In this document: in pieces, positions 13,789 through 33,688 of the stretch
Layout of the letters: every line of letters begins with the position of its first letter
Numbering within the stretch: the first letter of the stretch is position 1
The notes under the pieces: model-generated
The model's database searches: none
What the model was told of the DNA's origin: nothing
Seen by the model: only the letters and a program-made list of their open reading frames with translations
Source of the DNA: an uncultured Gemmataceae bacterium
Lineage (GTDB): Bacteria > Planctomycetota > Planctomycetia > Gemmatales > Gemmataceae
NCBI GenBank assembly: GCA_963750165.1
Contig: CAVVPN010000011.1
Location: 192,001-256,000 of the forward strand
Direction: 5' to 3'
DNA: 64,000 nt
Translations under genes and position numbers: made by a program

Positions 13789-15618
13789 TCAACCTACCCG
13801 GTAGTGTAACGGTAGCACAAGAGATTTTGGTTCTCTTTGTCCAGGTTCGAATCCTGGCCGGGTAACTTGATGCCTGGAAATGCCAGTCGATGCAACCCGC
13901 TGCACAGTCAGCGGGTTGTGTTGTTCCTGGGCCACCTCTTCTTTCTCCCCTACGGTGCCGGCAGGTGCCGTGAGATGCTTTTGGTTGCACGGAGTTTGTG
14001 CAACCAGTGTGCAACCAACACCGGCGCCATCTGCCCTGAGATCGTCCTTACCCGGCACCGAATGAAAATCGCTCGCGCGAGTTTCTCCCTCTGCATAGCC
14101 AACCGGCCCAGCCGGCCCGATTTGGGTTTCCCTCAGTGTTTTTCCAGGGTTTTCGTGGGTCGGTCGGATTTTCACCGCTGGCCCAACCGGCCCCTGAACC
14201 GGCCGGTCCGTGCCTGTCGCGGCCAGTCGGACGGGCTCCGCCGCCCCGGAGGCGCTGGCCGGAAGGAGGCTCGGCAGCTTCTCGACGGCCCCGGCCAGGT
14301 CGTGCAGTCGTCGGTGCGAATAACGAGCCGTCAACGTCGGCGTCGAGTGCCCGGCCAGTTCTTGCAGGGTCCGCAGGTCGATGCCGGCGCGGCCGCCCAG
14401 CGTCAGGTAGGAGTGGCGCAGGCTATGGAAGTCGGCGAATAGCGGGCCGTCGGCTCCCTCGACGGCGTAGGGGATGCCGGCCGTTTCCAGGTCGGCCCGC
14501 AGCATCTCCGCCGCCACCGAACGCCAGGCGCCGGGCCAGACGGGCAGGGCCCGGGGACGGCCGGCAAGGTAGCCGCGCAGGGTTGCGGCCACGTCGGCGG
14601 GGAGCGGTTGCACTTTTTGCCGCTTGTTCTTCGCCAGCCGCGCGGGCAGCACGACGGCGGGCACGTCGGCGTCGAGATCGAAATCGTTCGGTGTCAGTCC
14701 GGCCAGAGCGCGGGCACGGAAGCCTGTCCCGCACGCCATCAGGTACAGGGCCGCGCGGTCCGATCCGTTCAGCCCTCGGAATACCCGTTCGCTCGCCCCG
14801 GTGACGGCGAGCAATCTGCGGAGTTCATCCGCCGTCAGTTCGCGGCGGTCGTGTCTGCGGTCAGTCGCGGTGTTGAGCAGTGGCAGCCGGTCAAACGGGT
14901 TGGCGGGCAGGCGCTTGCCGGCAAGCCAGCGGCCGAAAGACCGGAGGGCCTGCGCGTTGTGGTTCGCCGTCTGCGGCGAGGCGCCCCGCGAGGCCCGTTC
15001 CAGCAGGGCAAGCACGGTCGCCCGCGGGTAACGGCGTGCGGGGCCTGCCCCGACGGCGGCCAGGCCGTGCCGGCGGATCGCCTTGGTGATTGACATGCGG
15101 CGAATGCCCAGCATCCGGGCCAGTTCCGCCATCGTGAACAACTCTTGCCCGTGGGGCAGTTCGGGGAGTTCGCGGTCGGCTCGCAGGGAAGTCAGCCACC
15201 CGGCGGCCTTGCCGGCGTCGAGGTCGGCCAACCAGATGGCGCCCGTGGCGTCGAAGAATGACCGGAGATGAGCGACCGTCTTTTGAACGTGCTGGGCACA
15301 GTCGCCCTTGGCCTGCAGCGCCGCGGCGAAATCGTCCAGGTGATCGGCCAGCGGCCGCTTGCGGTGTTCCTCGTAGGGGTCGGCCAGGCCGTGCTGACGC
15401 ATGGCGGCGTCGGTCAGCAGTTTGTTGAGCATTTGCTTGCTGCGGGCCAGGTCCGGGCACAGCGGGACGGCCTTACGCTTGCCGTTGGGCAGCGGCACCA
15501 AGCCGTAATACTTGCGCGATTCCTCGACGCGCTTGACGGCGCCGGGCGTGTCCGGGCTGCAGCGTTGCCCGTCCGGTGTGGCGTAGCGGACGGTATGTTT
15601 CTTGAACGGCGTGGCCAC
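13789..15618 (-). CDS. int: Tyrosine integrase; frame runs through the att core
   Basis: Catalytic set GTGFR, K(AKNK), HSLRH, AGH, TARY; C-terminus antisense to tRNA. Confidence 0.9.
   Translation of the reverse strand: MATPFKKHTVRYATPDGQRCSPDTPGAVKRVEESRKYYGLVPLPNGKRKAVPLCPDLARSKQMLNKLLTDAAMRQHGLADPYEEHRKRPLADHLDDFAAALQAKGDCAQHVQKTVAHLRSFFDATGAIWLADLDAGKAAGWLTSLRADRELPELPHGQELFTMAELARMLGIRRMSITKAIRRHGLAAVGAGPARRYPRATVLALLERASRGASPQTANHNAQALRSFGRWLAGKRLPANPFDRLPLLNTATDRRHDRRELTADELRRLLAVTGASERVFRGLNGSDRAALYLMACGTGFRARALAGLTPNDFDLDADVPAVVLPARLAKNKRQKVQPLPADVAATLRGYLAGRPRALPVWPGAWRSVAAEMLRADLETAGIPYAVEGADGPLFADFHSLRHSYLTLGGRAGIDLRTLQELAGHSTPTLTARYSHRRLHDLAGAVEKLPSLLPASASGAAEPVRLAATGTDRPVQGPVGPAVKIRPTHENPGKTLRETQIGPAGPVGYAEGETRASDFHSVPGKDDLRADGAGVGCTLVAQTPCNQKHLTAPAGTVGEKEEVAQEQHNPLTVQRVASTGISRHQVTRPGFEPGQREPKSLVLPLHYRVG
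13795..13865 (+). tRNA. tRNA-Gln(TTG)
   Basis: Acceptor TACCCGG/CCGGGTA, anticodon arm AGAGA-TTTTGGT-TCTCT, T arm CCAGG-TTCGAAT-CCTGG; CCA not encoded. Confidence 0.95.
13823..13867 (+). repeat. attL core (45 bp)
   Basis: GATTTTGGTTCTCTTTGTCCAGGTTCGAATCCTGGCCGGGTAACT, identical to 33644-33688. Confidence 0.95.
13983..14016. promoter_or_regulatory. Putative integrase arm-type sites, left arm
   Basis: TGTGCAACCAGTGTGCAACC (13997-14016) plus inverted GTGCAACC (13983-13990); 20-mer recurs at 33565-33584. Confidence 0.7.
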
Positions 15619-15754
15619 GGGATGCGCTCCTTTGGTGAGAAGGCCGGGCCGCCGGTCCGCTTCTCACGACGAAGCCGGCGGCACACGGCCAAAGGATTCA
15701 ACTACAACACAAGTATAAACTTCGGGCGAGCCAATCAAAGGCCAGTAGGGGCAG

Positions 15755-16117
15755 TTAATGGCGCCGGCGTTTCGCCGCTCGGGCTCGCGCCAGGTAGTAG
15801 CAGCGCATCGGCCAGCGCTCCCGCTCCCGCAGCCTTCGCCACAGCTGCCGGGCCGCTTCTTCTGCCTGCACCTTCGCCTTGGTCGTCTGGAAGAACGCTT
15901 CGGCAGCGACGCGCATCGCCGCCACGAACGCGGCATCCCGTAGCCAGCGGTAGACCGTCGCCCGATGCACCCCCGCCAAGCGTGCAGCTGGGGCAATGGC
16001 CAGCCGCTGACGGTAGGCGTCGAGGAATCGACGTTGCCGCTCACTCAACGCTGGCGCGGGGTTAACATCGGTTAGCAATGTGTCGCATCTGTCGCACGGC
16101 GGAACGTCGGCAGTCAT
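15755..16117 (-). CDS. HTH protein, resembles terminase small subunit N-terminal HTH
   Basis: LSERQRRFLDAY...AARLAGVHRATVYRWL.DAAF. Confidence 0.6.
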   Translation of the reverse strand: MTADVPPCDRCDTLLTDVNPAPALSERQRRFLDAYRQRLAIAPAARLAGVHRATVYRWLRDAAFVAAMRVAAEAFFQTTKAKVQAEEAARQLWRRLRERERWPMRCYYLARARAAKRRRH

Positions 16118-16245
16118 GTTTCACCCCCCGGTGGTCACCTCTCGGCCTCATCGTCGAATAGTCCAGGCTGACTCTCGCCCTTCCGTTGTGGTTGCCGACG
16201 GGGCAGCGCCTTCACCTCAAGGGCGCGGTCTTCCCTTGCGGCGGT

Positions 16246-16800
16246 CTACCGTCGCTTGCCGATCCTTTTCATAGCCCGTTTCACGGTGGCGAAATCCATC
16301 CCGGTGTCGGAGGCCAGCAGGCGGAACAGCGCGTCGTGCTTGCGGCTCTCCTGGCAGCTGGTGTAGGTCAGGTCGTGGCAGCGCCGGCAGCCGTAGTAGA
16401 CCGAGTGCGCCGCCAGGTACAGCTTGCCGACGCGCCGCCCGCACGGGCGGCCGTTCTTGCTCAGCGGGCAGAGGAACCACCAGCGCAGCCCCCCGAAGCG
16501 CGGCCGGGTCGTGGCCAGGCGGACGGTGTAGTCGAGGGCCTGCCCCGTCCTGGTCACGGTGTAATGGAGGCGCACCCAGGGGTTCGCCAGGTCGAGCGTG
16601 CAAACCTCGTAGCCGATGGACGACGCCGCCTTCGTCGGGCCGATCAGCCAGTTCCAGCCGCCGGATTGGTGGACGCCGGCGGCGAGAATCTTCTCGCGCG
16701 TCCAGCGGTTGGCGTCCAGGGCAAGGCACCCCTCGACGACCGCCTTTTTGCTGGGACGCCACCAGTGGTAATACGAGGCACCGCTTCCGAGTCCGCCCAC
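16246..16800 (-). CDS. Cys-rich (zinc finger) hypothetical protein
   Basis: GGLRWWFLCP...CGRRVGKLY...GCRRCHDLTYTS; GGGAGG RBS before GTG. Confidence 0.7.
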   Translation of the reverse strand: MGGLGSGASYYHWWRPSKKAVVEGCLALDANRWTREKILAAGVHQSGGWNWLIGPTKAASSIGYEVCTLDLANPWVRLHYTVTRTGQALDYTVRLATTRPRFGGLRWWFLCPLSKNGRPCGRRVGKLYLAAHSVYYGCRRCHDLTYTSCQESRKHDALFRLLASDTGMDFATVKRAMKRIGKRR

Positions 16801-17038
16801 GGCTATGCCCTCCCCCGATTATTCCTAAATCATGTACAAAAACTGCCATCCCGTCTGACGGCTTTTTTGGGCTATACTTTTCGCGGCAATGGCTTACGTC
16901 GATTGTGAAGGCGGCGTCTTGGTGCGCCACCACGATCAGTTTTCTTCCGTTTTGATGCCCTTTTGTTGGCGTTTGATGGTCAATCCGCTGCCGATTCGCC
17001 ACCGGCGATGGCGTTTTGTGGGCGCATCCGCCATGCCG

Positions 17039-17455
17039 TTAGGGGGCTTTTGTTCGCAGGCCGCAGCCCGCGCAGGCGATGGTTTTCCGGCTGTCCGACC
17101 AGAAGCACGGGCCGCCACACCGCCGGCAATTCCGGGACGCCCGGGGCCGCCAGCTGGCCCAGTCACACCAGGGCCAGCGGCCGCAACGCCAGAACGGCAC
17201 CCCCCGCGCCGTCTTGCGGACCACCACGCGGGCGCGGCAGCGGGGGCAGTCGCGGCGCCAGTCCACCGACGGGCGATCTACAGCGGGCCGGGCGTGCTTG
17301 ACCCGGCGCAGGGCCTGGCGCAAATCCGGGTCGCTGGCTTGCCAGCGGCAGACCGTCGCCACATGCACTCCGGCCACCTTGGCGGCCTTCCGCAGCGTCA
17401 GCCCGGCCCGGCGCAGCCGCAGAAGTTTCTCAATGATCGGGTCCGCGGCGTTCAT
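17039..17455 (-). CDS. HTH plus zinc-ribbon protein
   Basis: LRKAAKVAGVHVATVCRW; CPRC...FWRCGRWPWC, CRRC, CAGC; start overlaps upstream stop. Confidence 0.65.
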   Translation of the reverse strand: MNAADPIIEKLLRLRRAGLTLRKAAKVAGVHVATVCRWQASDPDLRQALRRVKHARPAVDRPSVDWRRDCPRCRARVVVRKTARGVPFWRCGRWPWCDWASWRPRASRNCRRCGGPCFWSDSRKTIACAGCGLRTKAP

Positions 17456-17787
17456 CGGCCCTCCCCACCGTCCTGGAAAGCGTGTCCGCAGGCCACGCAA
17501 CGCAGGATGAAGTAACTCCCGGTGAGCCTGCCGCAGTCCACGCACAGGCGGTCGAAACACTTCGGGCAGCGCCGGGCCGAGTCCAGCGGCCAGCGGCAGG
17601 CCGGGCAGCGCTCCAGGCAGTCCGGCCCGGTCAACAGGCCGATCAATCCCGCCCGGTGCGCCTGGATCAGTTCAGCCTGCGGGGCGTTCACCAGGAAGGC
17701 CGGCCGCCAGCGCAGCCGGGCGCCGTCCGTATCCAGTTCGACGCCCCGGGAACGGAGGTCCGCCAGCAAGGCGGTTGCTTCGTTCAT
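17452..17787 (-). CDS. Small zinc-finger protein coupled to primase gene
   Basis: LLADLRSRGVEL..DGARLRWR; four CxxC pairs; ATGA overlaps. Confidence 0.65.
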   Translation of the reverse strand: MNEATALLADLRSRGVELDTDGARLRWRPAFLVNAPQAELIQAHRAGLIGLLTGPDCLERCPACRWPLDSARRCPKCFDRLCVDCGRLTGSYFILRCVACGHAFQDGGEGR

Positions 17788-20700
17788 TGCCAGCCCCCCC
17801 ACCCCTCAGATTGCGTCCCAGACAAGATTTCCTCGGCGTTCGTCTCCTCCCCCGGACGAGACCGGCCCTTTCGGCCCACGGGCACGTTTACCTCAAAAAT
17901 GGAAGGGTTGCCGTGGGCCGCTGCGCCGTTCCCGTTACCGTTCCCGGCCCACGGTTTCGGCCCATCCCTGTCGTCGGCCTCGTCCTCCGGGCCGGTTGGG
18001 CCGGTTGTCGGCGCGGGGGGCAAGCCAGCCCACGCGATGTGCAGCACGTCGCGGCGGGCGCCCTGCAGCGTCTTGCGAACCGTCAACTTCTTCCGCGTCG
18101 TGTCCGTCGTGGCCAATAGCTCCTGTTCCTTCAGGCGTCGGCGGAGGGTGTGCGGCGTGATGCTGAAACAGTCGTTCTGGTCGCGGGCGAACTGCTGCAC
18201 GGCCGCGAAACTCGCGTCCGGCTCCAGGTACAATTCTCCGTCCGCCAGCCAGCCGACGCACACCCGCTGCGGCTTGTACCGGGTTTCGGTGCTCTCGCCG
18301 GTGTAATACTTCTCGGGCCGCCAACCCCAGCGCTGCGGCTCGGCGGGTTGGTTGCCGTCCTGGTCGGCGACGTGGGCGTAGCCGCTCGCCACGGCCGCCG
18401 CCAGCAGCCGCAGGAACAGCCCGGCCGGCTCCACGGTGGCGAGTTGGCTTGCCTGGGACGCGCCGGCTTCCGCCAGGGCACCCCATCCCCGTCGCCAGTA
18501 GTCCGCCCGATCCTGCTCCGAAATCGCGCCCACGGCCCGCGCGTAGTCGAGCAAGTAGCGCAGGCCGAGGGCCAGGTCGGCGACGATGCCCGGGGTCCGG
18601 GCGTGTTGCCCCGCGCTCCGGGCCTGGTCCCGCAGCTGCGCCAGTTCGTTCCGCAGCCGTGCGCGCACCGCTTCATACTGCGGCGCCAGCCAGCAGAGGA
18701 AACCGGCCAGGGCCGCGGCGTACAGCCCGGCGGCCGCGTCGCGCTGGCAGGCGCTCAAGGTCGGGTTGGGGTCCGGGGGCAGCGGGCCGAAGTCGCCGGG
18801 GGAGATTTCCAGCACCAGCAGCCGGGCGCGCAGGGACTGGCCGCGGGGCGTATCCTCGCCGGTGGAAAGCGTCAGCCCGCGGGGCGGCTTCGCCGGCCGT
18901 AGCGTGGCGTCGGCCTTCATGCGCTGCCGGCCGGCCCGGTTGCCCTGGCCGCGGAACAGCCGGTCGGCTTCCTTGTGGTAGCGCTGCACGTCGGCAGCTG
19001 ATCCGGTGGGGCAGAAGTCGTCCACGACCAGCAGCGCGTCTTTCGCCGTGAAGGCCAGCCCCTCCAGCGCGTTGCCCGTGGAACTCCAGCTGGCCGGCAG
19101 GTGCCGCGCGTCCATCTCAGGGCCGAAGTGTTGCTGCGCCAGGGCGGCGGCCTCGGACTTGTAACAGCCCGTCGGCCCGGCCAGGTGCAGGGCGAAATCC
19201 GTGGACCCCAGCGCGGCGCGGTAGACCGCGGCCAGCAGCGGGAACGTCAACCGATCCGGGCCGAGCCGCAGCAGCCCCAGGCTGGCCCGAACGGCGCTGG
19301 TGAGTCCGGCCGCCTGTCGCGCCGCGGCGGCACCTAACTCGCCGGTCAGTTGAACGTCACCCGGTTGGAGAAGGGCAAGTGGATGCGGCAGGCGGAAGCC
19401 GGCCAGGGGTTCGGGGAGCGCCACCGGGATGGCGTCGGTCAGCCCGTCCGCGCCGATGGCGCCGCCGGCGTGCAGGTAGAACCAACTCCCGTCGATCTGC
19501 CGCCAGCCGGTGTGCCGGTAGATTGTGCGCCGCGGCACATCGCCGGACAGCAGCTGCAGGGCCGTGCGCAGGTGGTCCTTCGTCCCCATGCCGGCGTAGA
19601 CGACGGCCCGCGTCCCCCAGGCGGGAACGGTCCAGCCCATGCCGGCAAACTCCGCGGCCGGCACCTCAGCCCGCGGCAAGGGCGAGCCGTCGCGCAGCGC
19701 CCCTTGCAAGGCCAGGCTGCGCGCCTGCTCGGCACCGTCGTCGTGAACCACGTCCTCCACGATCCGGGCGGAGAAGTTGCAGAGCGGCACCGGGACCGGG
19801 CCGTCCTTCGTCTGCACGGTGCGGTAGACGCAGCCGTCTTGCTCGAAGTAGGTGGGAGATTCCGCGCCTTCCGCGGGCGCGGCCTGGCGACGGAAGGGCC
19901 GCAATGCTTTGTCCAGGTCGCGGAGGGAAACGCGCTCCCGAATGGACGCGCGAACCGCGGCGAAGCCGGCAGGATCAGCCCCAGCCAGGTCGGCCAGTGC
20001 CTGCATCAACGCCTTGTCGCGGAACAGCGCTTCCGCGCCACCGCCGTCCAGCACGTCCTGCAACCGGGCCAGTTCATCGGGTGGGGCAGGTTCCTCATCC
20101 GCGGTTGCAGCGGCCAGCGTTTCCCGGATCGCCTGCAGCGCGACATCCCCTTGCAGCAGTTCGGGCGCCTTGCCGGCCGCGAGCAGGTCGTCCAGCCCCT
20201 TGCCGTTTGCCCCGTCCCAGCGTTCCAACTCGACGGCAAAGCCGGCGGCGGTCAGGGCATCGGTGCAGGCCAGGAGCGCCCGCGCCACGGTGGGGTTGTC
20301 CCAGGCGTCGGCGTCGAAGGCCAGGCGAACCGTTTTGCAGCCCAACTCCTTCAGCACGGCCAGCGCCGGCCGCCAGTTGGTCGCGCCGGGGACGGAGAGC
20401 GTCGGCACGCCAGTTCGGGCCTGGGTAACATCAGCCTTCAGTTCGCCTTCGGTCAGTCGCGCCAACTCGGCCGCCTCGGGAGTTCCCAAGGGGACGTGAA
20501 TCGGAGAACCCGGCCCTGGGCCGCCATGCCCCGCGGAAGAAACGTAGACGTAGCGGCGGTTCTTTTCGTCCGCGTCGTCTCTGCGCACCTTGAGGGCGAT
20601 GATTCGCCCGGTGCGGTCGCGGCACGGGACGATTAACCCGACCGGGCCGCGCAGCGTCAGGTAGTGGCCCGACGGCCCTTCTTTGACCACGACGCCCGGC

Positions 20701-21143
20701 ACGCGCAACAGCTTGTCCCCGAAGCGCTCGCGCAGCTCCCGGACGACCCGCGGCCGCCCCTGGCGTGACAGTGTGCCGTACCCGGCCTTGTCGATTACCT
20801 CATCCGTCAGGCCCCGCCGTTGCAGCGCTTCACGGTGCGCCTTGCTGAGCGGCAGCCGGGCCAGCAGTGCCGAGTAGACCTCGTGCAACGTGTCGGCGTC
20901 CGCCCGCTTCGCTTCCGGCCCCGGCCGCGGTGTGGGCGCGGCCTCGGGCCGCGGGCCGTCCGCCAGGCGGTGGAGGAAGTAGCGGGCGCCGTTGCTGTCT
21001 TCCTTCGAGCGAAAGCTGCCGTCCTCGACGCGCATGCACTTGCAGACGGCCCCGTCCGCCGTAACGCTGCACCAATCCGCACACCCGCAGACGGGACAAG
21101 GGGCGGCCCGAGAAACCCGGACCCAGTTGCGTTTCGTGTTCAC
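17784..21143 (-). CDS. Primase-helicase replication protein (Zn finger, TOPRIM, DUF927-like, P-loop)
   Basis: CPVCGCADWC; LTEGELKAD and LAFDAD; HTGWRQIDG; GPTGCYKS; LLVVDD. Confidence 0.85.
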   Translation of the reverse strand: MNTKRNWVRVSRAAPCPVCGCADWCSVTADGAVCKCMRVEDGSFRSKEDSNGARYFLHRLADGPRPEAAPTPRPGPEAKRADADTLHEVYSALLARLPLSKAHREALQRRGLTDEVIDKAGYGTLSRQGRPRVVRELRERFGDKLLRVPGVVVKEGPSGHYLTLRGPVGLIVPCRDRTGRIIALKVRRDDADEKNRRYVYVSSAGHGGPGPGSPIHVPLGTPEAAELARLTEGELKADVTQARTGVPTLSVPGATNWRPALAVLKELGCKTVRLAFDADAWDNPTVARALLACTDALTAAGFAVELERWDGANGKGLDDLLAAGKAPELLQGDVALQAIRETLAAATADEEPAPPDELARLQDVLDGGGAEALFRDKALMQALADLAGADPAGFAAVRASIRERVSLRDLDKALRPFRRQAAPAEGAESPTYFEQDGCVYRTVQTKDGPVPVPLCNFSARIVEDVVHDDGAEQARSLALQGALRDGSPLPRAEVPAAEFAGMGWTVPAWGTRAVVYAGMGTKDHLRTALQLLSGDVPRRTIYRHTGWRQIDGSWFYLHAGGAIGADGLTDAIPVALPEPLAGFRLPHPLALLQPGDVQLTGELGAAAARQAAGLTSAVRASLGLLRLGPDRLTFPLLAAVYRAALGSTDFALHLAGPTGCYKSEAAALAQQHFGPEMDARHLPASWSSTGNALEGLAFTAKDALLVVDDFCPTGSAADVQRYHKEADRLFRGQGNRAGRQRMKADATLRPAKPPRGLTLSTGEDTPRGQSLRARLLVLEISPGDFGPLPPDPNPTLSACQRDAAAGLYAAALAGFLCWLAPQYEAVRARLRNELAQLRDQARSAGQHARTPGIVADLALGLRYLLDYARAVGAISEQDRADYWRRGWGALAEAGASQASQLATVEPAGLFLRLLAAAVASGYAHVADQDGNQPAEPQRWGWRPEKYYTGESTETRYKPQRVCVGWLADGELYLEPDASFAAVQQFARDQNDCFSITPHTLRRRLKEQELLATTDTTRKKLTVRKTLQGARRDVLHIAWAGLPPAPTTGPTGPEDEADDRDGPKPWAGNGNGNGAAAHGNPSIFEVNVPVGRKGRSRPGEETNAEEILSGTQSEGWGGWQ

Positions 21144-21308
21144 GTCTGGTAAACTCTCGTGTGGGTATCAAGCCTGTTCGGTGATGCGCCCAGCGATCTT
21201 CGCTGGGCGTGTCCGTTTCGTTGGGGCGGCCGGAAGTCGAACCGGAGAACAGGGGTATCAAGCCCGCTCGGCGACCACGCACCCACCCCACAATGCACTT
21301 TCTCGAAC

Positions 21309-21765: not shown

Positions 21766-21884
21766 GGTGCCTCCAGAACAAGGGGGTCTTGATCTGGAGG
21801 CAGTATGACTGAAGCGCCGCCGACGAACCAACGACGCTATCTGTCGGTTTGATCGTCGGTGAATCGTCGGCGGCTCGTCCGGCG

Positions 21885-25596: not shown

Positions 25597-26475
25597 GGAG
25601 ACAGCAACCTGTATAGATATGTGAACAATGATGCGACTATTACCGATCCGTCTGGCTTGCAACCTGATATTCAGTTTTTCAGTCGCGACCAAAAAGGAAA
25701 AGCAGTGGTCAATGCGGGTAATGCGGACGAATTAAAACAAGTCTTCTTACCCGGGACTCTGGTGATCGTGGGCGGTGGGTACAATGATCGTGTTGAGGTC
25801 GATGAAAAAGGCAACAAAATCGCCCGCGAAGGGGATTTGGCAACACTGAAAAGAATTTATAACAACCCCAACGGAGTTCAAAATAACAAGCTTGATCCGG
25901 GTACGAAGGGATTTCAAACGCCTCATACTGGCATGCTCTGGCTAAAGCAGGCAAGTAATGTGCAAGATCTCTCGAACATTATCCTTCAAGCGCTGGCGAA
26001 AAACGGCGGAAAGAAATTCACGCGGATTACTGTCATTGGTCATTGTGGGATTGGAAACCCCGAGAAGGTAAAAATTAATGCGCCTGGAGTAATGTTAACT
26101 GATGCGCGTCTCCAATACCAAAATCGCTACCCTGATCACACAAACCCCAACGTAAAGAAACTCTCGGGTCTCATCAATGACAAAGGAAACCTTGATGCAC
26201 TGAGGAATGCGCTCGATAAAGCGCTCGACCCGAAAGGCGTGTTACAATTCGCTGTTTGTGGCTATGAGAAGAAATTCGACACATACTCTAAAAAGGAAGG
26301 TGAATGGTTTAAGGACCTCCAGGGGTTGGCGAACGTGCTTAATCGTGTCGTTGTGCATCCGAATCAACTGATGCATTTGGAACAGAATGGTGTGACTTAC
26401 GAGCCGGGCGAAGATAAAGCGGCGGGGGTCACGAAAGAATCATTTATTTGGCGGATTGCTGAACCCAAAAAATGA
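25597..26475 (+). pseudogene. Orphan Rhs C-terminus with putative toxin domain (5' truncated)
   Basis: NLYRYVNNDATITDPSGL Rhs core-end motif followed by a 271-aa AT-richer extension. Confidence 0.8.
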
Positions 26476-26529
26476 CCTGGGCTTCCGCGCCGGAGTGAGC
26501 AAATAACTTTCCGACACCCTGAGACACAC

Positions 26530-27705
26530 ATGCGTTACATCATTATCAGCATGGCAACCGTGCTTAGCATGAATGCAGGTTTGTGCTGCATTTTTCAAAG
26601 CAATGCCGATTCCGATCAGAAACCACAAAACCAAGTAGATCGACAAAAGGCTCCCCCAAAGGGGCGAGCGGATCAGGAAAAGATCCCGCCGAAAGAACCA
26701 TCAGATATGGTTCTGAAAAAACTTGGGTTTTGGGTGGTTGGGAACCCGGTGACCGCCGTCAGTCATGCGGAAAGCACTGTTGGCGACGCCGCACTCGCAC
26801 ACCTCGCGGCATTCCCCAGGCTCAGGACTTTGTCGCTAGATACCATGTGGAACATCACTAGCAACGGTCTGAAATATCTGGAGAATTGCAACAGATTGCG
26901 AGAGTTGCGCTTAGAACATATGAAGAAAATCGACGACGAGGGCATGAAATACGTTGCCCGATTGACGAAACTTCGAGAATTGAGCCTTTGGGAAACCTCC
27001 GTCGGCGATGAGGGAGTGAAAAGACTGAGCCGCTTGGTGGAACTGGAATCCCTTAATCTTGGCTGGACGAAAGTCACCGACGAGGGCTTGACCCAGTTGG
27101 CCAATTGCATCAAACTAAAAGAAGTGAGTTTGCCCGGAACGGGCATCACAGACCGTTGCATGCCTACCATCAACCGCTGGATAAACTTGGAGTCCCTTTC
27201 CATCTACAAAACCAACATTACGGACGACGGCTTGTTGGAGTTGAAGGATATGAAAAGGATTTATTTCCTTTGGATTCCCTCGTCGGTAGGAGATCGTGGT
27301 TTTCAACATCTTTGCGAATTCTCGTCTTTGCGTATCCTTACAGCGGACGGCACTCGGATCACGAACCAAGGGTTGATACACCTAAGGAAACTGCCGAAAC
27401 TTGAACAGTTGTCCTTAGGCAAAACGCCCATTGATGGAAACGGTTTGAGGCACCTCGCTAATTGTTTGAGACTGCGCAAATTAAACTTGTCCGGGACGAA
27501 GATCACGGATGTTTCTTTGTCGCATTTGAAGCCCCTTACGAGTCTCGAATCCCTCGATCTCAATGACACTAATATTTCTGATGAAGGGTTGGCTCATCTC
27601 GAGCAGTTGCACAATTTGAAAGAACTCTGGTTTCAACATAGGAAGATTTCAGAGAAAACGGTCCAGAAGTTAACAAAAAAGTTGCCGGGGCTGTTGATTC
27701 ACTAG
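26530..27705 (+). CDS. Leucine-rich-repeat protein, candidate immunity partner
   Basis: About 24-aa repeats LxxLxLxxTxITDxGLxxL; hydrophobic N-terminus; directly after Rhs-CT. Confidence 0.85.
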   Translation: MRYIIISMATVLSMNAGLCCIFQSNADSDQKPQNQVDRQKAPPKGRADQEKIPPKEPSDMVLKKLGFWVVGNPVTAVSHAESTVGDAALAHLAAFPRLRTLSLDTMWNITSNGLKYLENCNRLRELRLEHMKKIDDEGMKYVARLTKLRELSLWETSVGDEGVKRLSRLVELESLNLGWTKVTDEGLTQLANCIKLKEVSLPGTGITDRCMPTINRWINLESLSIYKTNITDDGLLELKDMKRIYFLWIPSSVGDRGFQHLCEFSSLRILTADGTRITNQGLIHLRKLPKLEQLSLGKTPIDGNGLRHLANCLRLRKLNLSGTKITDVSLSHLKPLTSLESLDLNDTNISDEGLAHLEQLHNLKELWFQHRKISEKTVQKLTKKLPGLLIH

Positions 27706-27708
27706 TCC

Positions 27709-28039
27709 GTAAGCGCCCGGCCAATCACGTCGAGCCGTGCCAAAAGCAAACGGCGTCCACCCGCGGAACCCTGAGAGCCGCAGGTTGACGCCGTTGTTGG
27801 TTTGCTCTGTCTCTTCTCAGCCTGCCCAGGCTTCCCCGCTAGGTGACTCTCGGCCTCGCCGTAAGAGCCAGCGATCTGGCAGCCAGTCCTGTAATTGCTC
27901 TGCCGTTGGCCCGTCCCCCAGCGCGAACAGCCCCGGCAACGCCTCCCGCAGGTAACCAAACGGGTCGACGCCCAGATGCTTGCACGTCGCCACCAGCGTG
28001 TACAGCACCGCCGCCGTCTGACCCCCGGCCTCACTGCCG
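27709..28039 (-). pseudogene. IS66 remnant: terminal repeat and TnpC C-terminus
   Basis: End GTAAGCG at 27709; GSEAGGQTAAVLYTLVATCKHLGVDPFGYLREAL...WLPDRW. Confidence 0.85.
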
Positions 28040-28095
28040 TGTCCTCCTCGCCGAAATAATGGCAGTCTGATCGCTGGAAATGGGTGCCGGAATTC
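28040..28095 (+). repeat. Transposon left TIR
   Basis: TGTCCTCCTCGCCGAAATAATGGCAG precisely at the IS66 breakpoint. Confidence 0.85.
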
Positions 28096-28137
28096 GGCCC
28101 TCCCCTTCGCGGGTCCCCCCGCACGAAAGGAGGGCGC

Positions 28138-29597
28138 ATGTCCGCCCCGTCCCCCACCCCCGACCCGGCCGCGGTAGTGCCGCGGCCCGCCCCTCAGGCC
28201 CCCGACTCCGGCCCGCCAGTGCCGCCGGCCGACGTTGCCCCGCCCGACGAACCGCCCCGCGAGCGGCCCCGCCTGCAGCAGCCCGCCCGCGGCCGGCGCC
28301 TCGCCCGGCCCCCCGACACCCCCGCCGCGCCCCTGACCGCCGCCCAGCGCCTGCTCGTCCTCGACGCCTGGCGCCGCAGCGGCCTGCCCGCCGGCGACTT
28401 CGCCCCCCTGGTCGGCGTCTCGAAGCATACCCTGTACGCCTGGAAACGCAAGTTCGAGACGGACGGCCCCGCCGGCCTGGACGACAAGGCCCGCGGCGCC
28501 CCCGCCGGCAGCCGCCTGCCCGAGCCCACCCGCCGCGCCATCCTCATGCTCAAGGAGGCCCACCCCGATTGGGGCACCGAGCGCATCGCCGCCCTGCTGC
28601 TCCGCGGCCCCGCCCTGGCCGCCAGCCCCCAGGCCGTCGCCCGCGCCCTGCGCGAGGCCGGCTACGAGCTGGAGGAGGCGCCGACCAGGCCCCACCCCGA
28701 CCACGACCGCCGCTTCGAGCGCGCCGCCCCAACCAGCTGTGGCAGACCGACCTGTTCACCTTCGTCCTGAAGCGCCAGAACCGCCGGGTCTACCTGGTCG
28801 CCTTCCTCGACGACCACAGCCGCTTCCTGGTCGGCTACGGCCTGCACGCCAGCCAGTCCACGCCCCTGGTCCTGGAGGTCTTCCGCGCCGCCGTAGCCGT
28901 CCACGGCGCCCCCGCGGAGGTGCTCACCGACAACGGCAGCCAGTACGTCACCTGGCGCGGCAAGGGCGCCTTCACGAAGGAGCTGGAGAAGCGCGGCGTC
29001 CGCCAGGTGGTGGCCTCGCCGCACCGGCCGCAGACGCTGGGCAAGATCGAGCGCTTCTGGGGCACGCTCTGGCGCGAGTGCCTGGAGGCGGCGGTGTTCG
29101 TGGACCTGGCCGACGCCCGGCAGCGCGTCGGGCTGTTCATCGACCACTACAACTTCCAGCGGCCGCACCAGGGCATCGGCAACCTGGTGCCGGCCGACCG
29201 CTACTTCGGGGCGGCGCCGGAGGTGTTGCGGACGCTGCGGGCGCGGGTGGCGGCCAACGCCCTGGAGCTGGCCCGGCACGGGCTGCCCAGGGCGCCGTTC
29301 TACCTGACGGGGCAGGTGGGGGGCCAGCCGTTCAGCCTGCACGCCGAGGGCGAGCGCGTCATCCTTACGGACGCGGGCGGCGGCCGCCGCGAGGTGGACC
29401 TCGCCGCCCCGCCCGCGCCGGCCCCGGCGGCGCCGGGCGGGCCGCCGGCGGCGCTGCCCGCGCCGGTGTGCCCACAGGGGATCGTGGCGGGGCACCCGGG
29501 GGATGCGGAGGAGCCGCCGGAGCCCGGGGCCTCGCCGCTGGACGGGGGCCTGCGGCGGCTGGACGCGGGGCCGAGCCCGGAAGGGGGTGCGCCATGA
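28138..29597 (+). CDS. IS481-like DDE transposase (frameshift near 28725)
   Basis: Two HTH regions; PNQLWQTD, LDDHSR, TDNGSQY, QTLGKIERF, YNFQRPHQG. Confidence 0.85.
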
Positions 29598-30163
29598 GCC
29601 CCACCCCCTCCCCCCGGCGGCGCGGCCGACCGCCCGCCGGCACGCCCGCGCCGCCCGCGGCGGCACCCGCGCCGGCACCCGCGGCGGACCCGACGCCGTT
29701 CGCGGGAGCCAGCCCGGCGGCCCGGCGACTGGCGGCGACGATCCTGGAGGTGCTGGCCGGCAGTCTGCGGCCCGCGGAGGCCGGCCGGGCGCTGGGGCTG
29801 TCGCTGGCCCGCTACTACCAGCTGGAACTGCGGGCGGTGGCCGGGCTGGTGGCGGCCTGTGAGCCCCGGCGGCGCGGCCACGCCCCGGCCGCCGAGCCCG
29901 CCGACCTGCGCCGCGAGTGTGAGCGGCTGCGCCGGGAGTGCGCCCGGCAGCAGGCCCTGGTCCGCGCCGCCCGGCAGGCGGTCGGCCTGACGCTGCCGGC
30001 GCCGCCCGAGCCGCCCGCCGCCCGCAAGCGGCGCCCCACCGTCCGCGCCCTGAAGATGGCCGCGCTGCTGCAGCCGTTCGGGGACGCCGCCCCCGCCGCC
30101 CCCGCCGAGGCCCCGGCCGAACCGGCGGCCCCGGAGTGCCCGCCCACGCCGGCCCCGCCCTGA
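29594..30163 (+). CDS. Transposon accessory HTH/coiled-coil protein
   Basis: ATGA overlap; ILEVLAG...AGRALGLSLARYYQLE; LRRECERLRRE. Confidence 0.65.
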   Translation: MSPTPSPRRRGRPPAGTPAPPAAAPAPAPAADPTPFAGASPAARRLAATILEVLAGSLRPAEAGRALGLSLARYYQLELRAVAGLVAACEPRRRGHAPAAEPADLRRECERLRRECARQQALVRAARQAVGLTLPAPPEPPAARKRRPTVRALKMAALLQPFGDAAPAAPAEAPAEPAAPECPPTPAPP

Positions 30164-30257
30164 CCGTGCGCCCGGCGGCGTCCCCCGAAGCTAGAGTTGG
30201 CCGGGGCGGGCGGCGGTCGCCTGCCCCGGCATTTGCGTTTTTCTGGAGGGCGGGTCG

Positions 30258-30689
30258 ATGACGCGGGGACGAAGGCCGGAGTGGGACGCGGCGGTGGGGC
30301 GGCTGGAGGGCTCGGCGCTGGCCAAGGCGCGGCTGCTGGCGGTGCTGGACGTGCTGTCAGGAAGGCGGACGGTGGCCCAGGCGGGGCTGCCGCTGGGCCT
30401 GGGCGAGCGGCGGCTGCGGGCGCTGCGCGACCAGGCCCTGGCGGCGGCCCTGGCGGGGCTGGAGCCGCGCCCGGCGGGCCGGCCGGCGCGGGCGCCGGCG
30501 GGGCCGGACGCGCGGGTGGCGGCCCTGGAGGCCGAGGTGCGCGAGCTGCGCATCGGCTTGCGCGCCGCCCAGGTCCGCGAAGAGATCGCCCTGCTGCTGC
30601 CGCGGCTGCGCCGCCGGGGCGGCCGGGCGGCGGGGGCGACGCGGACCCGGCGGGTGCCCGCCGCGAGGAGCGGCGGGTGCAACGGCTGA
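30258..30689 (+). CDS. Transposon accessory HTH/coiled-coil protein
   Basis: GGAGG RBS; VLDVLSGRRTVAQA..LGLGERR; LEAEVRELR. Confidence 0.65.
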   Translation: MTRGRRPEWDAAVGRLEGSALAKARLLAVLDVLSGRRTVAQAGLPLGLGERRLRALRDQALAAALAGLEPRPAGRPARAPAGPDARVAALEAEVRELRIGLRAAQVREEIALLLPRLRRRGGRAAGATRTRRVPAARSGGCNG

Positions 30690-31813
30690 CTGCCCCCGGG
30701 CAACCGCCCGGGGAACCGCGGCGGCGCGGGCCGGCGGGGCAGCGGGCGGCCCGGGAGCGGGAGCGGGCCGTGCGCGCCCGGGCGGTGGCCTTCTGCCGCT
30801 GGGCCGCCCGGCTGGGGCTGACGCGGGCGGAGGCGGCTGCACGCCTGGGGCTGTCCCTGCGGACACTGAGGCGCTGGGAGGCGCGCTGGCGGCGCGACCG
30901 GCTGCGGGCGGCAGCGCAGGGCCGGCCGGCGCAACGCTCCGACCGGGAGTTGCGCAACCGGGCGCTGGCGCTGATTGGGCTGCTGGGCCCGCGGGTGGGG
31001 CTGCCGACGCTGCAGGCGCTGTGCCCCGGGATGGCGCGCCGCGAGGTGGCCGACCTGCTGCGCCGCTACCGCCGGGCGTGGGCGCGGCGGCACCGGCTGC
31101 TGGCCCGGGTGTTGCACTGGCAGCGCCCCGGTACGGTCTGGGCGGTGGACTTCTCGGAGCCGCCGGCGCCGGTGGACGGCCAGTTCGGGCGGCTGCTGGC
31201 GGTGCGCGACCTGGCCAGCGGCTGCCAGCTGCTGTGGCTGCCGGTGGCGGACGAGACGGCTGCAACGGCCGCGGCGGCGCTGGAAGCGTTGTTCCGGGAA
31301 CACGAGGCACCGCTGGCGCTGAAGTCGGATAATGGCTCGGCGTTCGCGTCCGAGGAGTATGAGTCGCTGTTGCGGGCGTGGGAGGTGTGGCCGCTGCCCT
31401 CGCCGCCGCGGCAGCCGCGCTACAACGGCTCTTGTGAGGCCGGCATCGGCTCGATGAAGGCGCGAACGCATCAGCAGGCGGCGCGGGCGGGTCGGCCGGG
31501 GCGGTGGACGTGCGACGACGCCGAGGCGGCCCGGCTGCAGGCCAACGAGACGGCGCGGCCCTGGGGCGTCAACGGGCCGACCCCCGAGGAGGTCTGGCAA
31601 GGACGGCTGCCGGTGCAGGCCGAGAAGCGGGCGGCCTTCGGGGAGTCCGTGCGGCGGCTGGAGCGGGAGGCGCGGGCGGAGTTGGGGCATGGCCCAGACA
31701 CCGTGCTGGACCGCATGACGCAAGCGGCGGTGAACCGGGCGGCGCTGCGGCGGGCGCTGGTGGCGCACGGCCTGCTCCGGTTCACCACGCGGGAGCAGCC
31801 CGGCATGCCGTGA
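30677..31813 (+). CDS. Second DDE (rve-type) transposase
   Basis: HTH AAARLGLSLRTLRRW; WAVDF, KSDNGSAF, YNGSCEAG. Confidence 0.8.
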   Translation: MQRLTAPGQPPGEPRRRGPAGQRAARERERAVRARAVAFCRWAARLGLTRAEAAARLGLSLRTLRRWEARWRRDRLRAAAQGRPAQRSDRELRNRALALIGLLGPRVGLPTLQALCPGMARREVADLLRRYRRAWARRHRLLARVLHWQRPGTVWAVDFSEPPAPVDGQFGRLLAVRDLASGCQLLWLPVADETAATAAAALEALFREHEAPLALKSDNGSAFASEEYESLLRAWEVWPLPSPPRQPRYNGSCEAGIGSMKARTHQQAARAGRPGRWTCDDAEAARLQANETARPWGVNGPTPEEVWQGRLPVQAEKRAAFGESVRRLEREARAELGHGPDTVLDRMTQAAVNRAALRRALVAHGLLRFTTREQPGMP

Positions 31814-31877
31814 GCCGGCGCCCCGGGAAACGGACAGCGGGGCCGGGGGCAAGCGCTGCCCCCGGCCCCGTGCCGTC

Positions 31878-32192
31878 TCAACCCGCCAGGGCGCCGGCGA
31901 CCTCGCCGAACGCCAGGGCGCGGCGGACGCGGTAGGCGGGGATGTCCTGGATGGAGTACCAGAGCCCTTTCCGCGAACGCCGCAGCCAGCGCCGCGGCAC
32001 AGACAGCTCCAGGACCACGACGGATTCAATCCGCCCTCCGTGGCGCCGCACCGTATGAAGTGCGGCCCAGCTACTCTTGTGGGGTGTGTGCAGCCAGACC
32101 ACTTTCAGCCGGCCCTTGCTCTTGGAGCAGAGCAGGCCGCCTTTCAGGATGCTGGGCAAGTTACGGGCGAGCGTCGCATGGCGTAGCCTCAT
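31878..32192 (-). CDS. Small ADP-ribosyltransferase-fold (Tpt1/DarT-like) protein
   Basis: LRHATLARNLPSILKGGL...VVWL...VVLEL...GLWYSIQDIP. Confidence 0.55.
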   Translation of the reverse strand: MRLRHATLARNLPSILKGGLLCSKSKGRLKVVWLHTPHKSSWAALHTVRRHGGRIESVVVLELSVPRRWLRRSRKGLWYSIQDIPAYRVRRALAFGEVAGALAG

Positions 32193-32252
32193 GGGGACCA
32201 CCTTTCGCGCTGGGTGGCAGGGGGTGGGCGTCCCCCTGCCGTGGTCCCGTGG

Positions 32253-32588
32253 TTACACCTTGCCGGCCGCGATCAGCGCCGCCAACCCGTCGGCGTGTTT
32301 GCAGCGCTGCCAGCGGGCGTGGCCCTTGCAGCTGCACGTCCGGCTGTCGGCGTCAATGTTGACGTGGTACACGTCCGGCTCGCCGTCGGTGCCGACCTTC
32401 TCGACCGTGAAGCCGCGGCCGAAGTCGGCCGGGAACTCGGTCAGGAAGTAGTCGGCGGTGTCCTTGCCGACGGTGATGCGCACCACGCCGGGGTTGCCCC
32501 CGAAGGGCGCCAGCGCCAGACGGATGGACCGCGCCGGCTTGCTGCGGGGTTTGCGTTGACGGACGGCCGCGGTTGCGGTAGCGTTCAT
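32253..32588 (-). CDS. SWIM zinc-finger protein
   Basis: YHVNI...TCSCKGHARWQRCKH; AAGGA RBS. Confidence 0.75.
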   Translation of the reverse strand: MNATATAAVRQRKPRSKPARSIRLALAPFGGNPGVVRITVGKDTADYFLTEFPADFGRGFTVEKVGTDGEPDVYHVNIDADSRTCSCKGHARWQRCKHADGLAALIAAGKV

Positions 32589-32771
32589 CTGCGTTCCTTT
32601 CTTCGGAAGGAATGCCACGGACCCGGACGGCGCCAACCGTCGCGGGTCCAACTTGATTTCAGGCCCCGTTTGCCTCTTCTCTGGTTGGCGCGACGGGAAC
32701 CAGTCCCCCGCGCCCGTGTCCCGCCCTCCCTCCCGGTTGCCCGGTTCCGAGCGGCTGCTTGTCAAAGAACC

Positions 32772-32836
32772 TTGTCACCAGTGGCGACGATGTTATAATA
32801 CGCTAGTAAGCGCACCGTGTCAACGCTAATTAGCGT
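32772..32836. promoter_or_regulatory. Overlapping divergent sigma70-type promoters with two operators
   Basis: Minus: TTGACA-17-TATTAT (32823 to 32795); plus: TTGTCA-16-TATAAT (32772-32799); palindromes ACGCTAGTAAGCGC (32800) and ACGCTAATTAGCGT (32823). Confidence 0.75.
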
Positions 32837-32879
32837 ATTTTATGGAATTTCTGGTTGTGCCGAAAGGGAGGTTTTCCCC

Positions 32880-33191
32880 ATGAAACCCGAGTGGTTCGCG
32901 GGCCGGTTACGGGAACTGCGCGAGGCGGCGGGGTTGACTCAACAGCAGTTAGCCGACGCGGCCGGGCTGAAGCTGGCCGGGGTCCGCAACCTGGAGCAAG
33001 GGCGGACGTATCCGGAGTGGCCGTCCGTGCTGGCGCTCTGCCAGGCGCTGGGGGTGGGTTGCGATGCGTTCACCACGGAGCCGGCGCGGCAACCGCCGCC
33101 CGGGCGCGGCAGGCCGCCGAAGGCTACCGCCGAACCAGTTGGACAGCCGGAACCGAAGCGATCGAGGGGGCGGCCGCGTAAGCAGACGTGA
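32880..33191 (+). CDS. XRE-family HTH regulator with AT-hook-like tail
   Basis: RLRELREAAGLTQQQLADAAG...LEQGRTYP; GRGRPPK, RGRPRK. Confidence 0.9.
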   Translation: MKPEWFAGRLRELREAAGLTQQQLADAAGLKLAGVRNLEQGRTYPEWPSVLALCQALGVGCDAFTTEPARQPPPGRGRPPKATAEPVGQPEPKRSRGRPRKQT

Positions 33192-33456
33192 GTGGGCCGA
33201 AACGCTCGCGGAACCCTATCGACGTGGGCCGGTCCAAAGCGAGTGGGCCAGTGCCATCCCTCGCCTCGGCCCACGGGTATCCTCATGCTTTCCGTGCTTC
33301 AATCGACGTGTGGGCCGGTTGGGCCGGTCCCCGAGCGGGGGAGAGAAGGGCACCCGATTGAATTGGGAAGTGCGGCTGACCAGGGCAGAAAACGCGCGGG
33401 CCGGCGCTTCCAATCATCAAGGAAGGCCGGCCCGTGAAGAACGGATCGGTGCGGCA

Positions 33457-33645
33457 TCATTTGCAGCTGTCGGCCAGGGTAATGATGGCGCGGCGGACGT
33501 GTTCGGGCAGGTTCGGCCAGGCGTCGATGAGGCGGGCCAGGTCCGCTGGCAGTTCGGGCCGGTCTGTGCAACCAGTGTGCAACCGTGGCCGTTCAGCATC
33601 CAAAACTTCTTGCTGGCCAACATGTTGTGGAGGGTGCTTATCGGA
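33457..33645 (-). other. Alternative integrase C-terminal segment, in frame with int after excision
   Basis: Manual translation: SDKHPPQHVGQQEVLDAERPRLHTGCTDRPELPADLARLIDAWPNLPEHVRRAIITLADSCK, stop at 33459-33457. Confidence 0.7.
33565..33584. promoter_or_regulatory. Putative integrase arm-type sites, right arm
   Basis: Exact copy of the 20-mer at 13997-14016. Confidence 0.7.
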
Positions 33646-33688
33646 TTTTGGTTCTCTTTGTCCAGGTTCGAATCCTGGCCGGGTAACT
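33644..33688 (+). repeat. attR core (3' part of tRNA-Gln)
   Basis: Identical 45-mer to 13823-13867. Confidence 0.95.

Follow-up and report, generated by a model that had tools for sequence, protein, structure and literature searches.

A planctomycete tyrosine integrase gene that spans its own attachment site and exchanges its C-terminus upon integration

We analyzed a 64,000-nucleotide stretch of DNA (the window) from an uncultured Gemmataceae bacterium of the phylum Planctomycetota (GenBank assembly GCA_963750165.1, contig CAVVPN010000011.1, positions 192,001 to 256,000). The window carries an integrative element inserted into the 3′ part of a tRNA-Gln gene. The tyrosine integrase gene of this element (int, encoding Int) spans its own attachment site, attP, and integration swaps the C-terminus of the encoded protein. 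This arrangement, originally proposed from a sequence-only reading of the window, is confirmed here, and the same layout is found in 16 relatives of the element.

The ends of the element are marked by an exact 45-nt direct repeat that corresponds to the 3′ part of tRNA-Gln. One copy completes the regenerated tRNA at attL and the other is the displaced original at attR (Table 1). The spacing between the two copies is 19821 nt (3 × 6607), which is indeed a multiple of three as first noted. The tRNA-Gln(ttg) gene is the only tRNA gene that ARAGORN identifies in the 64-kb window. The locus thus has the features by which Islander defines a tRNA-targeting genomic island, wherein an intact tRNA gene (tDNA) is present at one end, a displaced 3′ tDNA fragment is present at the other, and an integrase gene lies between them. 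The Islander paper gives this signature, and also states that some integrases extend across attP (PMC4383910).

The Int protein is a tyrosine recombinase as judged both by its Pfam match (PF00589) and by its catalytic residues. In an alignment of 54 Int sequences (A3), R301, H398-x-x-R401, H424, and R432/Y433 are invariant or nearly so, with H398 nearly and R401 fully invariant. From the catalytic Tyr433, the int frame remains open for 151 codons before it reaches the core. An LP...ATGTD sequence located about 35 residues after this tyrosine is near-invariant in the close family and is also present in the distant Int proteins of loci L013, L118, L124, L128, L133, L119, and L057. This conservation beyond the catalytic tyrosine indicates that the extension is conserved at the protein level, at least where it begins. 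The core itself encodes Int residues 585 to 599, a 15-residue peptide (VTRPGFEPGQREPKS) that is the antisense of the tRNA-derived core, and the last 10 residues of the integrated form (LVLPLHYRVG) are the antisense of the tRNA sequence located 5′ of the core. All catalytic residues, along with the ATGTD motif, are encoded upstream of the core and are retained in the 609-aa (amino acid) prophage protein.

The detached 3′ end of int is found on the far side of the element, where the frame entering the attR core reads VTRPGFEPGQREPKS-DKHPP...AWPNLPEHVRRAIITLADSCK followed by a stop codon, and is open from stop to stop at positions 33457 to 33687. When the circle is reconstructed, 599 codons from attL are joined to 61 codons from attR to give a 660-aa product. 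A serine codon straddles the edge of the core and encodes serine at both junctions. In the integrated state, the frame of the detached end (hereafter the tail) is closed upstream by a TGA at positions 33688 to 33690. It has no ATG or GTG, and the only open reading frame (ORF) with a start codon is a TTG-initiated ORF of 48 aa. Reading the frames at attL and attR therefore bears out what had been claimed about this gene, namely that it stays open past the catalytic domain and crosses the core, that its two products are 609 and 660 aa in length with the sequences given, and that both retain every catalytic residue.

The window alone is ambiguous, since its G+C content is 65% to 70% and G+C content at third codon positions (GC3) drops in the extension, and so we compared it with relatives. 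The sequence-only reading had proposed circularizing homologous islands and comparing the frequency of frame fusion with a chance expectation of one third. Accordingly, a second copy of the tRNA-derived sequence was sought downstream of each tail and the element was circularized in silico. To be included, an element needed two att copies and, directly next to attL, an integrase ORF that measures 434 aa or more from stop to stop. Among scanned loci with at least 1.5 kb of downstream sequence, seven have an exact repeat of at least 15 nt. These have an integrase gene at the far end (L012, L013, L018, L032, and L051), an integrase remnant (L072), or no int (L045). A survey of genomes, in which 20 regions were fetched of about 130 matches, yielded a second att copy in 12. 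In 11 of these the integrase ORF is 437 to 613 aa long (L117, L118, L119, L121, L122, L124, L126, L127, L128, L133, and L135), and in the other (L125) a 219-aa remnant is present. The remaining regions (L120, L123, L129, L130, L131, L132, L134, and L136) have no second att copy within the fetched 2 to 20 kb and stand outside the test.

Circularization fuses int and the tail in frame in 17 of 17 elements (the window and its 16 relatives), where one third would be expected for each. The claim that fusion would exceed chance among homologues therefore holds. In all 16 relatives with an integrase, the sole long ORF that enters the attL core is the integrase, and the new 3′ end created by integration is seen in them as well. 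The remnants in L072 and L125 are also in frame. Because the spacing between att copies varies across the elements (0, 1, or 2 modulo 3), it is the two ORFs, and not the length of the island, that account for the fusion. Together the 17 elements target tRNAs with 14 different anticodons, and their Int proteins fall into 12 clusters at 40% or greater identity, being 28% to 39% identical to the window Int; those of L018 and L117 have no similarity to the window Int detectable by blastp. Loci L119 and L121 are close kin. For L117, an initial pairing with a weak repeat (87% identity, E 0.006) at an out-of-frame, non-integrase ORF was rejected and replaced by an exact 36-nt repeat at tRNA-Lys.

Stop codons give a second measure of whether the open frame arises by chance. 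Within a uniform span of 50 codons before the core, the int frame is free of stops in 17 of 17 elements, whereas the other two frames are stop-free in only 6 and 3 of the 17 (with 16 and 28 stops in total). This control takes in elements of 44% to 46% G+C, where chance open frames are short. Likewise, Int homologues run a median of 128 aa past the catalytic tyrosine (115 homologues), as expected if close relatives lack stops between the catalytic domain and att. On the other side of the junction, 27 of 104 loci (the window among them) have a match to a strict antisense T-arm pattern upstream of the tail. Between the 3′ end of the tRNA and the tail, no stop interrupts the tail frame in any of the 27, and the other frames are open in 5 and 1. 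The median open run upstream of the conserved tryptophan of the tail (103 loci) is 70 codons in the tail frame and 6 and 12 codons in the others, and the open run reaches 50 codons or more in 84/100, 15/102, and 9/103 cases, respectively. A cross-lineage comparison of tRNA-antisense 7-mers between tails and Int ends gave matches in 7, 8, and 5 of 15 loci for the three frames. Because the frame in which a given tRNA is read varies among lineages, only tests of frame made within an element are informative.

The tRNA itself is arranged differently in several elements. In L118 (G150:C20:245900-265800), int and the tail read the tRNA-Leu core in its sense rather than its antisense direction. The complete tRNA of this element adjoins the tail instead of int, and the two frames again fuse. 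In L119, L121, L040, L058, and L027, the stretch that separates the tail from the flank (or int) includes an entire tRNA gene rather than only a 3′ fragment. The tail frame read through the tRNA antisense is open in L119, L040, and L058, is closed within the tRNA in L121, and is closed between the tRNA and the tail in L027. Some elements may therefore carry or duplicate a whole tRNA at attP.

Uninterrupted genes encoding Int, core, and tail also exist, which is contrary to the tail being translated only from a start of its own. Metagenome contigs L057 (239 aa), L106 (194 aa), and L040 each have a single ORF that runs from box II and the catalytic tyrosine through a tRNA-antisense peptide to the tail. 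In L128, two elements are arranged in tandem, and their junction yields a 613-aa integrase-core-tail ORF. The same ORF arrangement is found in L143, with two tails on one 7.7-kb contig behind it. Furthermore, when Int residues 425 to 609 were searched against 5.8 billion clustered proteins (238 matches), 6 of the 120 homologues listed end in the tail (P0213, P0217, P0230, P0244, P0145, and P0167), each with a tRNA-antisense peptide before it. Most of the other listed homologues end in tRNA-antisense peptides. A T-arm-antisense-like peptide is present within the final 120 aa in 86 of 119 Int homologues, compared with 8 of 119 for a control stretch, although this count is biased because the query favors extended proteins.

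The tail is small, conserved, and widely distributed in the phylum. AlphaFold2, supplied with a 116-row alignment, predicts helices at tail residues 33 to 44 and 47 to 59 with block-mean predicted local distance difference test (pLDDT) values of 94 to 98, consistent with the helical hairpin that had been expected at this end, whereas the first 30 residues are modeled with low confidence. A HMMER search with the 61-aa tail against 1.84 billion representative proteins gave 124 matches at E ≤ 1e-3, including 10 at E ≤ 1e-10. Nearly all are 40 to 190 aa in length and match at their C-termini, and the few long ones are proteins with multiple copies of the repeat. Of 32 that were fetched, many have in-frame upstream peptides that are antisense to a tRNA T-arm (GFEPRQADPES, GFEPGMADLQS, DSNPQPPDRQS, GLEPxTYGLK, and others). 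Thus, the statement in the sequence-only reading that an AWPxLP motif is common in small ORFs at planctomycete tRNA islands proved correct. The tail profile matched 75 of 401 sampled Planctomycetota genomes, or 53 of the 244 that are of good quality, and a search of a protein atlas returned Planctomycetota clusters only, none of them named. Pfam assigns no family to the tail.

Loci were scanned with a narrow tail alignment (A2), as a broader one (A1) was too variable. This approach confirmed 25 of 47 candidate stretches of genome contigs (24 tail loci) and 202 among 434 metagenome stretches, of which the best 80 loci were used. Viral contigs gave one weak, chance-looking locus (L036) only, which was dropped before counts were made, as were L024 (a Methylobacteriaceae ORF with a chance WPNLPEH match) and L137 and L140 (HEAT-repeat-like proteins). 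A 468-aa frame in L130 was dropped because it is not an integrase. In the window's own genome, a search for tail paralogues returned chance matches only, the best of which (L002) is a histidine-kinase-like ORF. Among 114 distinct blocks of tail DNA, the mean pairwise differences at codon positions 1, 2, and 3 are 0.42, 0.26, and 0.63, a pattern which argues that the tail is under protein-level selection as a translated sequence. The extreme C-termini of the 17 tails are unlike one another (e.g., ...ADSCK, ...VEATR, and ...QEVK) and do not resemble ssrA tags, with the conserved hairpin stopping 2 to about 10 residues short of the C-terminal end.

Several tail-like sequences occur in other settings. 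Proteins P0007 (223 aa) and P0014 (286 aa) carry the tail motif (...AWPxLxxxxRRAMLALEPEF...) four times in tandem, following an N-terminal sequence that resembles a signal or lipobox. The hairpin is thus found as a repeat unit in proteins other than integrases too. That the profile picks up the HEAT-repeat-like L137 and L140 hints at a HEAT-like hairpin. In L138 (G221:C40:9500-16500), an ORF at 2769-4211 (481 aa) ends in what resembles the tail (...LIRAWPELPEDVRARIAE...), with a possible tRNA-antisense peptide (DRFEPP) preceding it. Blastp gave no match between this ORF and the integrase set, and by eye its N-terminal part has the look of a primase-polymerase and a HAD-like domain. Either the frame reads through an attR junction by chance, or proteins of a second class use the tail. 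In L014 (ORF 3920-4309), what precedes the tail in frame is no tRNA-antisense peptide but a sequence that looks by eye like region 2 of an extracytoplasmic function (ECF) sigma factor, and the contig ends at the tail. This locus may be an element inserted into a protein-coding gene.

The stop-free, poorly conserved linker between the ATGTD motif and the core carries signals that appear to act in the DNA. The 9-mer TGTGCAACC occurs exactly four times in the window, all in the att arms (positions 13997, 14008, 33565, and 33576), and an inverted copy with one mismatch is located at 13983. These copies look like arm-type sites. The repeat is read in differing frames, as GCTLVAQT in the P arm and LHTGCT in the P′ arm, which points to a DNA-level rather than protein-level constraint there. 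The arm-site block is conserved in an int remnant elsewhere in the genome (L007). A strong hairpin followed by a T-rich run lies just 3′ of the regenerated tRNA, and is probably a tRNA terminator supplied by the element and embedded in the int frame on the other strand. L007 has a hairpin with a different sequence at the equivalent place. The original intrinsic terminator has been parted from tRNA-Gln by the element and is now stranded behind attR. Overlapping DNA-level constraints of this kind (arm sites, terminator, and core) are the cause to which we attribute the drop in GC3, which is about 0.85 over Int residues 1 to 460 and then 0.45 to 0.65 in the extension and tail.

The attB site of myxophage Mx8 is located in a tRNA-Asp gene. 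A review describes an Mx8 attP site inside the 3′ part of int, past the catalytic residues, wherein integration makes a new 3′ end without inactivating the enzyme (PMC6070905), and the Islander paper states that the Mx8 and SSV integrases extend across attP, citing Tojo et al. 1996 for Mx8 (PMC4383910). The window element is like Mx8 IntP/IntX in that its attP core lies inside int and 3′ of the catalytic tyrosine codon, and in that the prophage gene has a different C-terminus (...EPKS joined to LVLPLHYRVG, versus ...EPKS joined to 61 aa in the circle). Unlike Mx8, which is a single phage, the piece swapped in this family is a conserved and separately folding hairpin found with at least 12 Int clusters and 14 tRNA targets in one phylum. 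We found no sequence tie to Mx8 IntP or its C-terminal segment, in that the tail has no tblastn match at E ≤ 1 among 50,697 phage records, a set whose inclusion of Mx8 was left unchecked. Int itself matches only generic tyrosine recombinases among these records, with 25% to 31% identity over the catalytic domain. As the tail lacks a phage match, the planctomycete system is best described as working like Mx8, and not as a relative of the Mx8 tail.

Two other systems place an attachment site within a gene. For SSV1, pTN3, and pT26-2, a review describes an att site inside the integrase gene that partitions the gene upon integration, with the intact integrase being lost, and calls the arrangement exclusive to archaea (PMC8371274). 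The window element shares the location of the att site with this type. In contrast, its gene is cut 151 codons after the catalytic tyrosine and a complete catalytic protein is left, such that Int is not a suicidal integrase in this sense. Thus, the comparison with Mx8 in the sequence-only reading was apt, whereas SSV1 and pTN3 are a poorer match, since in these the partition falls in the catalytic gene itself. In mycobacteriophage BPs and its relatives, the repressor gene is split at attP, and the 33 residues removed from the longer viral form carry an ssrA-like degradation tag (PMC4557955). The window element is similar in that attP lies within coding sequence and the viral and prophage forms differ by a C-terminal piece. 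It differs from BPs in that the split gene is int and the piece removed is a conserved helical hairpin on a long linker. A literature search that covered few subscription journals turned up Mx8, SSV, and BPs, and no description of the planctomycete family or its AWPxLPEH tail. The split-integrase family looks undescribed, and the proposal of a widespread and unrecognized split-gene system is supported.

These observations suggest a model that we regard, taken as a whole, as the likely explanation, wherein int is split, its full-length form is specific to the circle, and integration switches the isoform. In the circle, one 660-codon ORF encodes N-terminal and HTH_17 domains, the catalytic domain with Tyr433, the ATGTD motif, a variable linker of about 110 aa, the 15 core-antisense residues, then a further linker (about 30 aa), and finally a conserved tail of two helices (about 27 residues), such that a long tether of low complexity ends in a small hairpin. 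The longer linker doubles as the location of the candidate arm-type sites and of the probable terminator hairpin on the opposite strand. Integration cuts the ORF inside the core to leave a 609-aa prophage Int, in which 10 tRNA-antisense residues replace the last 61. The tail stays at attR, 19.8 kb away and without an ATG or GTG start, where its codons are presumably unexpressed or at most weakly expressed. The two DNA states could then produce two Int isoforms of differing activity, as for Mx8 IntP/IntX.

That the split ORF is real and is translated as one protein from the circle is very probable. The tail is conserved throughout the phylum even though only the circle attaches it to Int, which argues that the full-length form matters for integration. 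This form, which could be encoded only by the circle or by a tandem junction, may thus be the one selected for integrating. Furthermore, both halves stay open and in frame across diverse lineages, and so the elements must pass through the circle often. A frequent circular state suggests in turn that tail-less Int, either alone or with help, still allows excision. The prophage form may accordingly have an altered activity that is reduced or biased toward excision. That the tail acts specifically on the activity or direction of recombination is a reasonable idea that we place somewhat below an even chance. A more specific version, which must be considered speculative and rather improbable, is that the tail is a topology-sensing directionality module, wherein the hairpin on full-length Int holds the HTH_17 domain or the synapse in an integrative mode and loss of the tail yields an excisive form. 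A predicted complex of Int residues 1 to 475 with the tail scored 0.00 and counts neither way. If such a module were to exist, one gene would serve both directions without a separate recombination directionality factor, and each DNA state would encode the enzyme that leaves it, a design common to a phylum-wide, tRNA-targeting family.

Some of our findings weigh against this model. The low GC3 of the extension and tail is codon usage unlike that of a well-adapted gene. The 124 matches listed from the tail search include no integrase of about 600 aa, and fused forms were obtained only from the integrase side. In L012 and L135, a 1-nt insertion or deletion in the repeat outside the tRNA means that the fusion is in frame only if crossover occurs inside the tRNA part, and in the L128 tandem array an integrase is missing from the end of the outer unit, the one proximal to the tRNA. 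In-frame starts are present upstream of the tail among 113 loci (TTG in 83, GTG in 46, and ATG in 51), and together with the 48-aa TTG ORF of the window these indicate that some separate expression of the tail may occur. Moreover, translation and the circular form of this element are deduced from its sequence, and any difference in activity between the isoforms is something that we infer. Several of these points would be expected if the arrangement were due to chance in G+C-rich DNA, such that Int ends soon after its catalytic domain, the long open frame consists of att-arm DNA that is not translated, and the tail is a small gene of its own at the other end of the element that shares the frame by accident. 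This explanation would also accommodate the arm-type repeat being read in two frames. However, it does not readily account for in-frame fusions over 12 Int clusters without a single exception, for an int frame without stops while the other frames are closed even at 44% to 46% G+C, for unbroken int-core-tail ORFs, for the ATGTD motif conserved past the end of the canonical domain, or for the absence of an in-frame ATG at more than half of the tail loci. We consider a chance arrangement strongly disfavored and highly improbable.

Two other explanations accept the split ORF as real. In the first, the integrase is suicidal in the SSV sense, wherein tail-less Int is inactive and excision requires full-length Int from a tandem junction or a superinfecting circle, with integration being otherwise one-way. 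The strong conservation of the tail implies that full-length Int matters, tandem arrays that rebuild the full-length ORF are present (L128, and the two tails behind L143), decayed remnants are common (L007, L045, L072, and L125), and the review describes such logic for archaeal elements (PMC8371274). Nevertheless, unlike in SSV1, the prophage form keeps all of the catalytic residues as well as the ATGTD motif, and the persistence of open, in-frame halves in all 17 elements at 14 tRNA targets implies frequent passage through the circle and hence some route of excision. This explanation is unlikely on balance, although it deserves consideration. In the other, the presence or absence of the tail sets the half-life of Int, by analogy with the integration-dependent immunity of BPs. 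That system offers a parallel logic, with attP inside a gene whose product is shortened at its C-terminus on integration (PMC4557955), and a long, low-confidence linker ending in a small terminal module would suit a stability tag. Yet the C-termini of the 17 tails are dissimilar and not ssrA-like, and the conserved part is a folded hairpin located before the C-terminal end, an arrangement seen more typically in binding modules than in degrons. A role as a stability tag is therefore doubtful. An isoform switch like that of Mx8 remains the explanation we prefer, at somewhat less than even odds.

Table 1. Positions of features discussed in the text, numbered from the first nucleotide of the window.
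Feature	Position	Strand	Details
tRNA-Gln (anticodon ttg)	13795-13866	+	ARAGORN; regenerated at attL; 3′ 44 nt inside the repeat
int, integrated form	15618..13789	-	609 aa; ORF ends ...EPKSLVLPLHYRVG, stop
attL core copy	13823-13867		45 bp; repeat search; identical to attR copy
Element body between cores	13868-33643		19,776 bp
int linker (P arm of attP)	13868-14205	-	Poorly conserved, stop-free; GC3 about 0.5
Strong hairpin, then T-rich run	13888-13922	+	Just 3′ of regenerated tRNA; -31.8 kcal/mol, z -3.76 (folding)
Candidate arm-type sites, P arm	13983-14016		Two direct exact TGTGCAACC and one inverted copy with one mismatch; within int linker
ATGTD motif, residues 467-471	14206-14220	-	About 35 aa past Tyr; T468, G469, and T470 nearly invariant in A3
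Tyrosine recombinase catalytic domain, residues 261-436	14311-14838	-	PF00589; E 1.8e-12, 47.8 bits vs cutoff 27.1
Catalytic Tyr433 codon	14320-14322	-	Invariant R432/Y433, H435 in alignment A3
HTH_17 (excisionase-type helix-turn-helix), Int residues 160-209	14992-15141	-	PF12728; E 1.3e-6, 29 bits vs cutoff 27
Cargo protein, 1119 aa	17784-21143	-	DUF3854 and DUF927 (Pfam)
Leucine-rich-repeat protein, 391 aa	26530-27705		LRR_4, E 2e-21
rve-family transposase ORFs	28080-29597; 30197-31813		Pfam
Detached 3′ end of int	33457-33643	-	61 codons and TGA stop
Conserved AWPxLPEH tail domain	33466-33546	-	Predicted helix-turn-helix hairpin; tail residues 33-59
Candidate arm-type sites, P′ arm	33565-33584		Second pair of exact TGTGCAACC
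attR core copy	33644-33688		45 bp; repeat search; displaced original 3′ part of tRNA
Original intrinsic tRNA terminator	33691-33723	+	-20.6 kcal/mol, z -6.29, then UUUUAUUU

The element also contains cargo and inserted sequences. We take the 1119-aa DUF3854/DUF927 protein to be a replication protein of the primase-helicase kind. The leucine-rich-repeat protein is encoded in a patch of 46% to 52% G+C (25600 to 27600) inside a region of about 67% G+C, and this patch looks like foreign cargo within the element. Positions 28000 to 32000 have a G+C content of about 72% to 86% and include the two rve-type transposase ORFs, from which we conclude that insertion sequence (IS) elements have inserted in the island here. 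A 48-nt imperfect repeat is located at 25048 and 28052.

To the right of attR and the old terminator, overlapping stop-to-stop ORFs of 329 and 156 aa are present on the minus strand (33728 to 34769). Together these frames resemble a frameshifted tyrosine-recombinase-like gene (...HRFRKRAF...MRHY...) that points at the tRNA, although neither has a Pfam match at E ≤ 0.001. They may represent the decayed integrase of an older neighboring island. The L007 remnant in the same genome (C3:802339-805536, at about 1200 to 1700) is 80% identical to Int over residues 403 to 471 and is missing the N-terminus. Its int frame still enters a tRNA-like 3′ end, where ARAGORN makes no call. Just upstream of this end is a sub-threshold Rfam match to a group I intron (RF00028; 34 bits versus a gathering score of 50, E 2.9e-6), which suggests that the target of L007 is an intron-containing tRNA.

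The system described here is a phylum-wide variant of the known attP-spanning integrase layout, and it is the variant that is new. With it, what had been a curiosity of a single phage (Mx8) becomes a family that is open to comparative study. There are also practical consequences for annotation. Gene callers currently report such integrases with spurious tRNA-antisense ends and their tails as orphan hypothetical ORFs, while pairing an int gene with its in-frame tail locates the two island boundaries to the base. The way in which this bacterial family cuts its own gene is milder than that of the archaeal elements, which bears on the claim made in the review that self-disrupting recombinases are exclusive to archaea (PMC8371274). 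A conserved C-terminal module placed beyond the recombination site of its own gene means that the choice of Int isoform that can be made depends on the state of the chromosome, and the idea that directionality is controlled with no separate excisionase thereby becomes directly testable.

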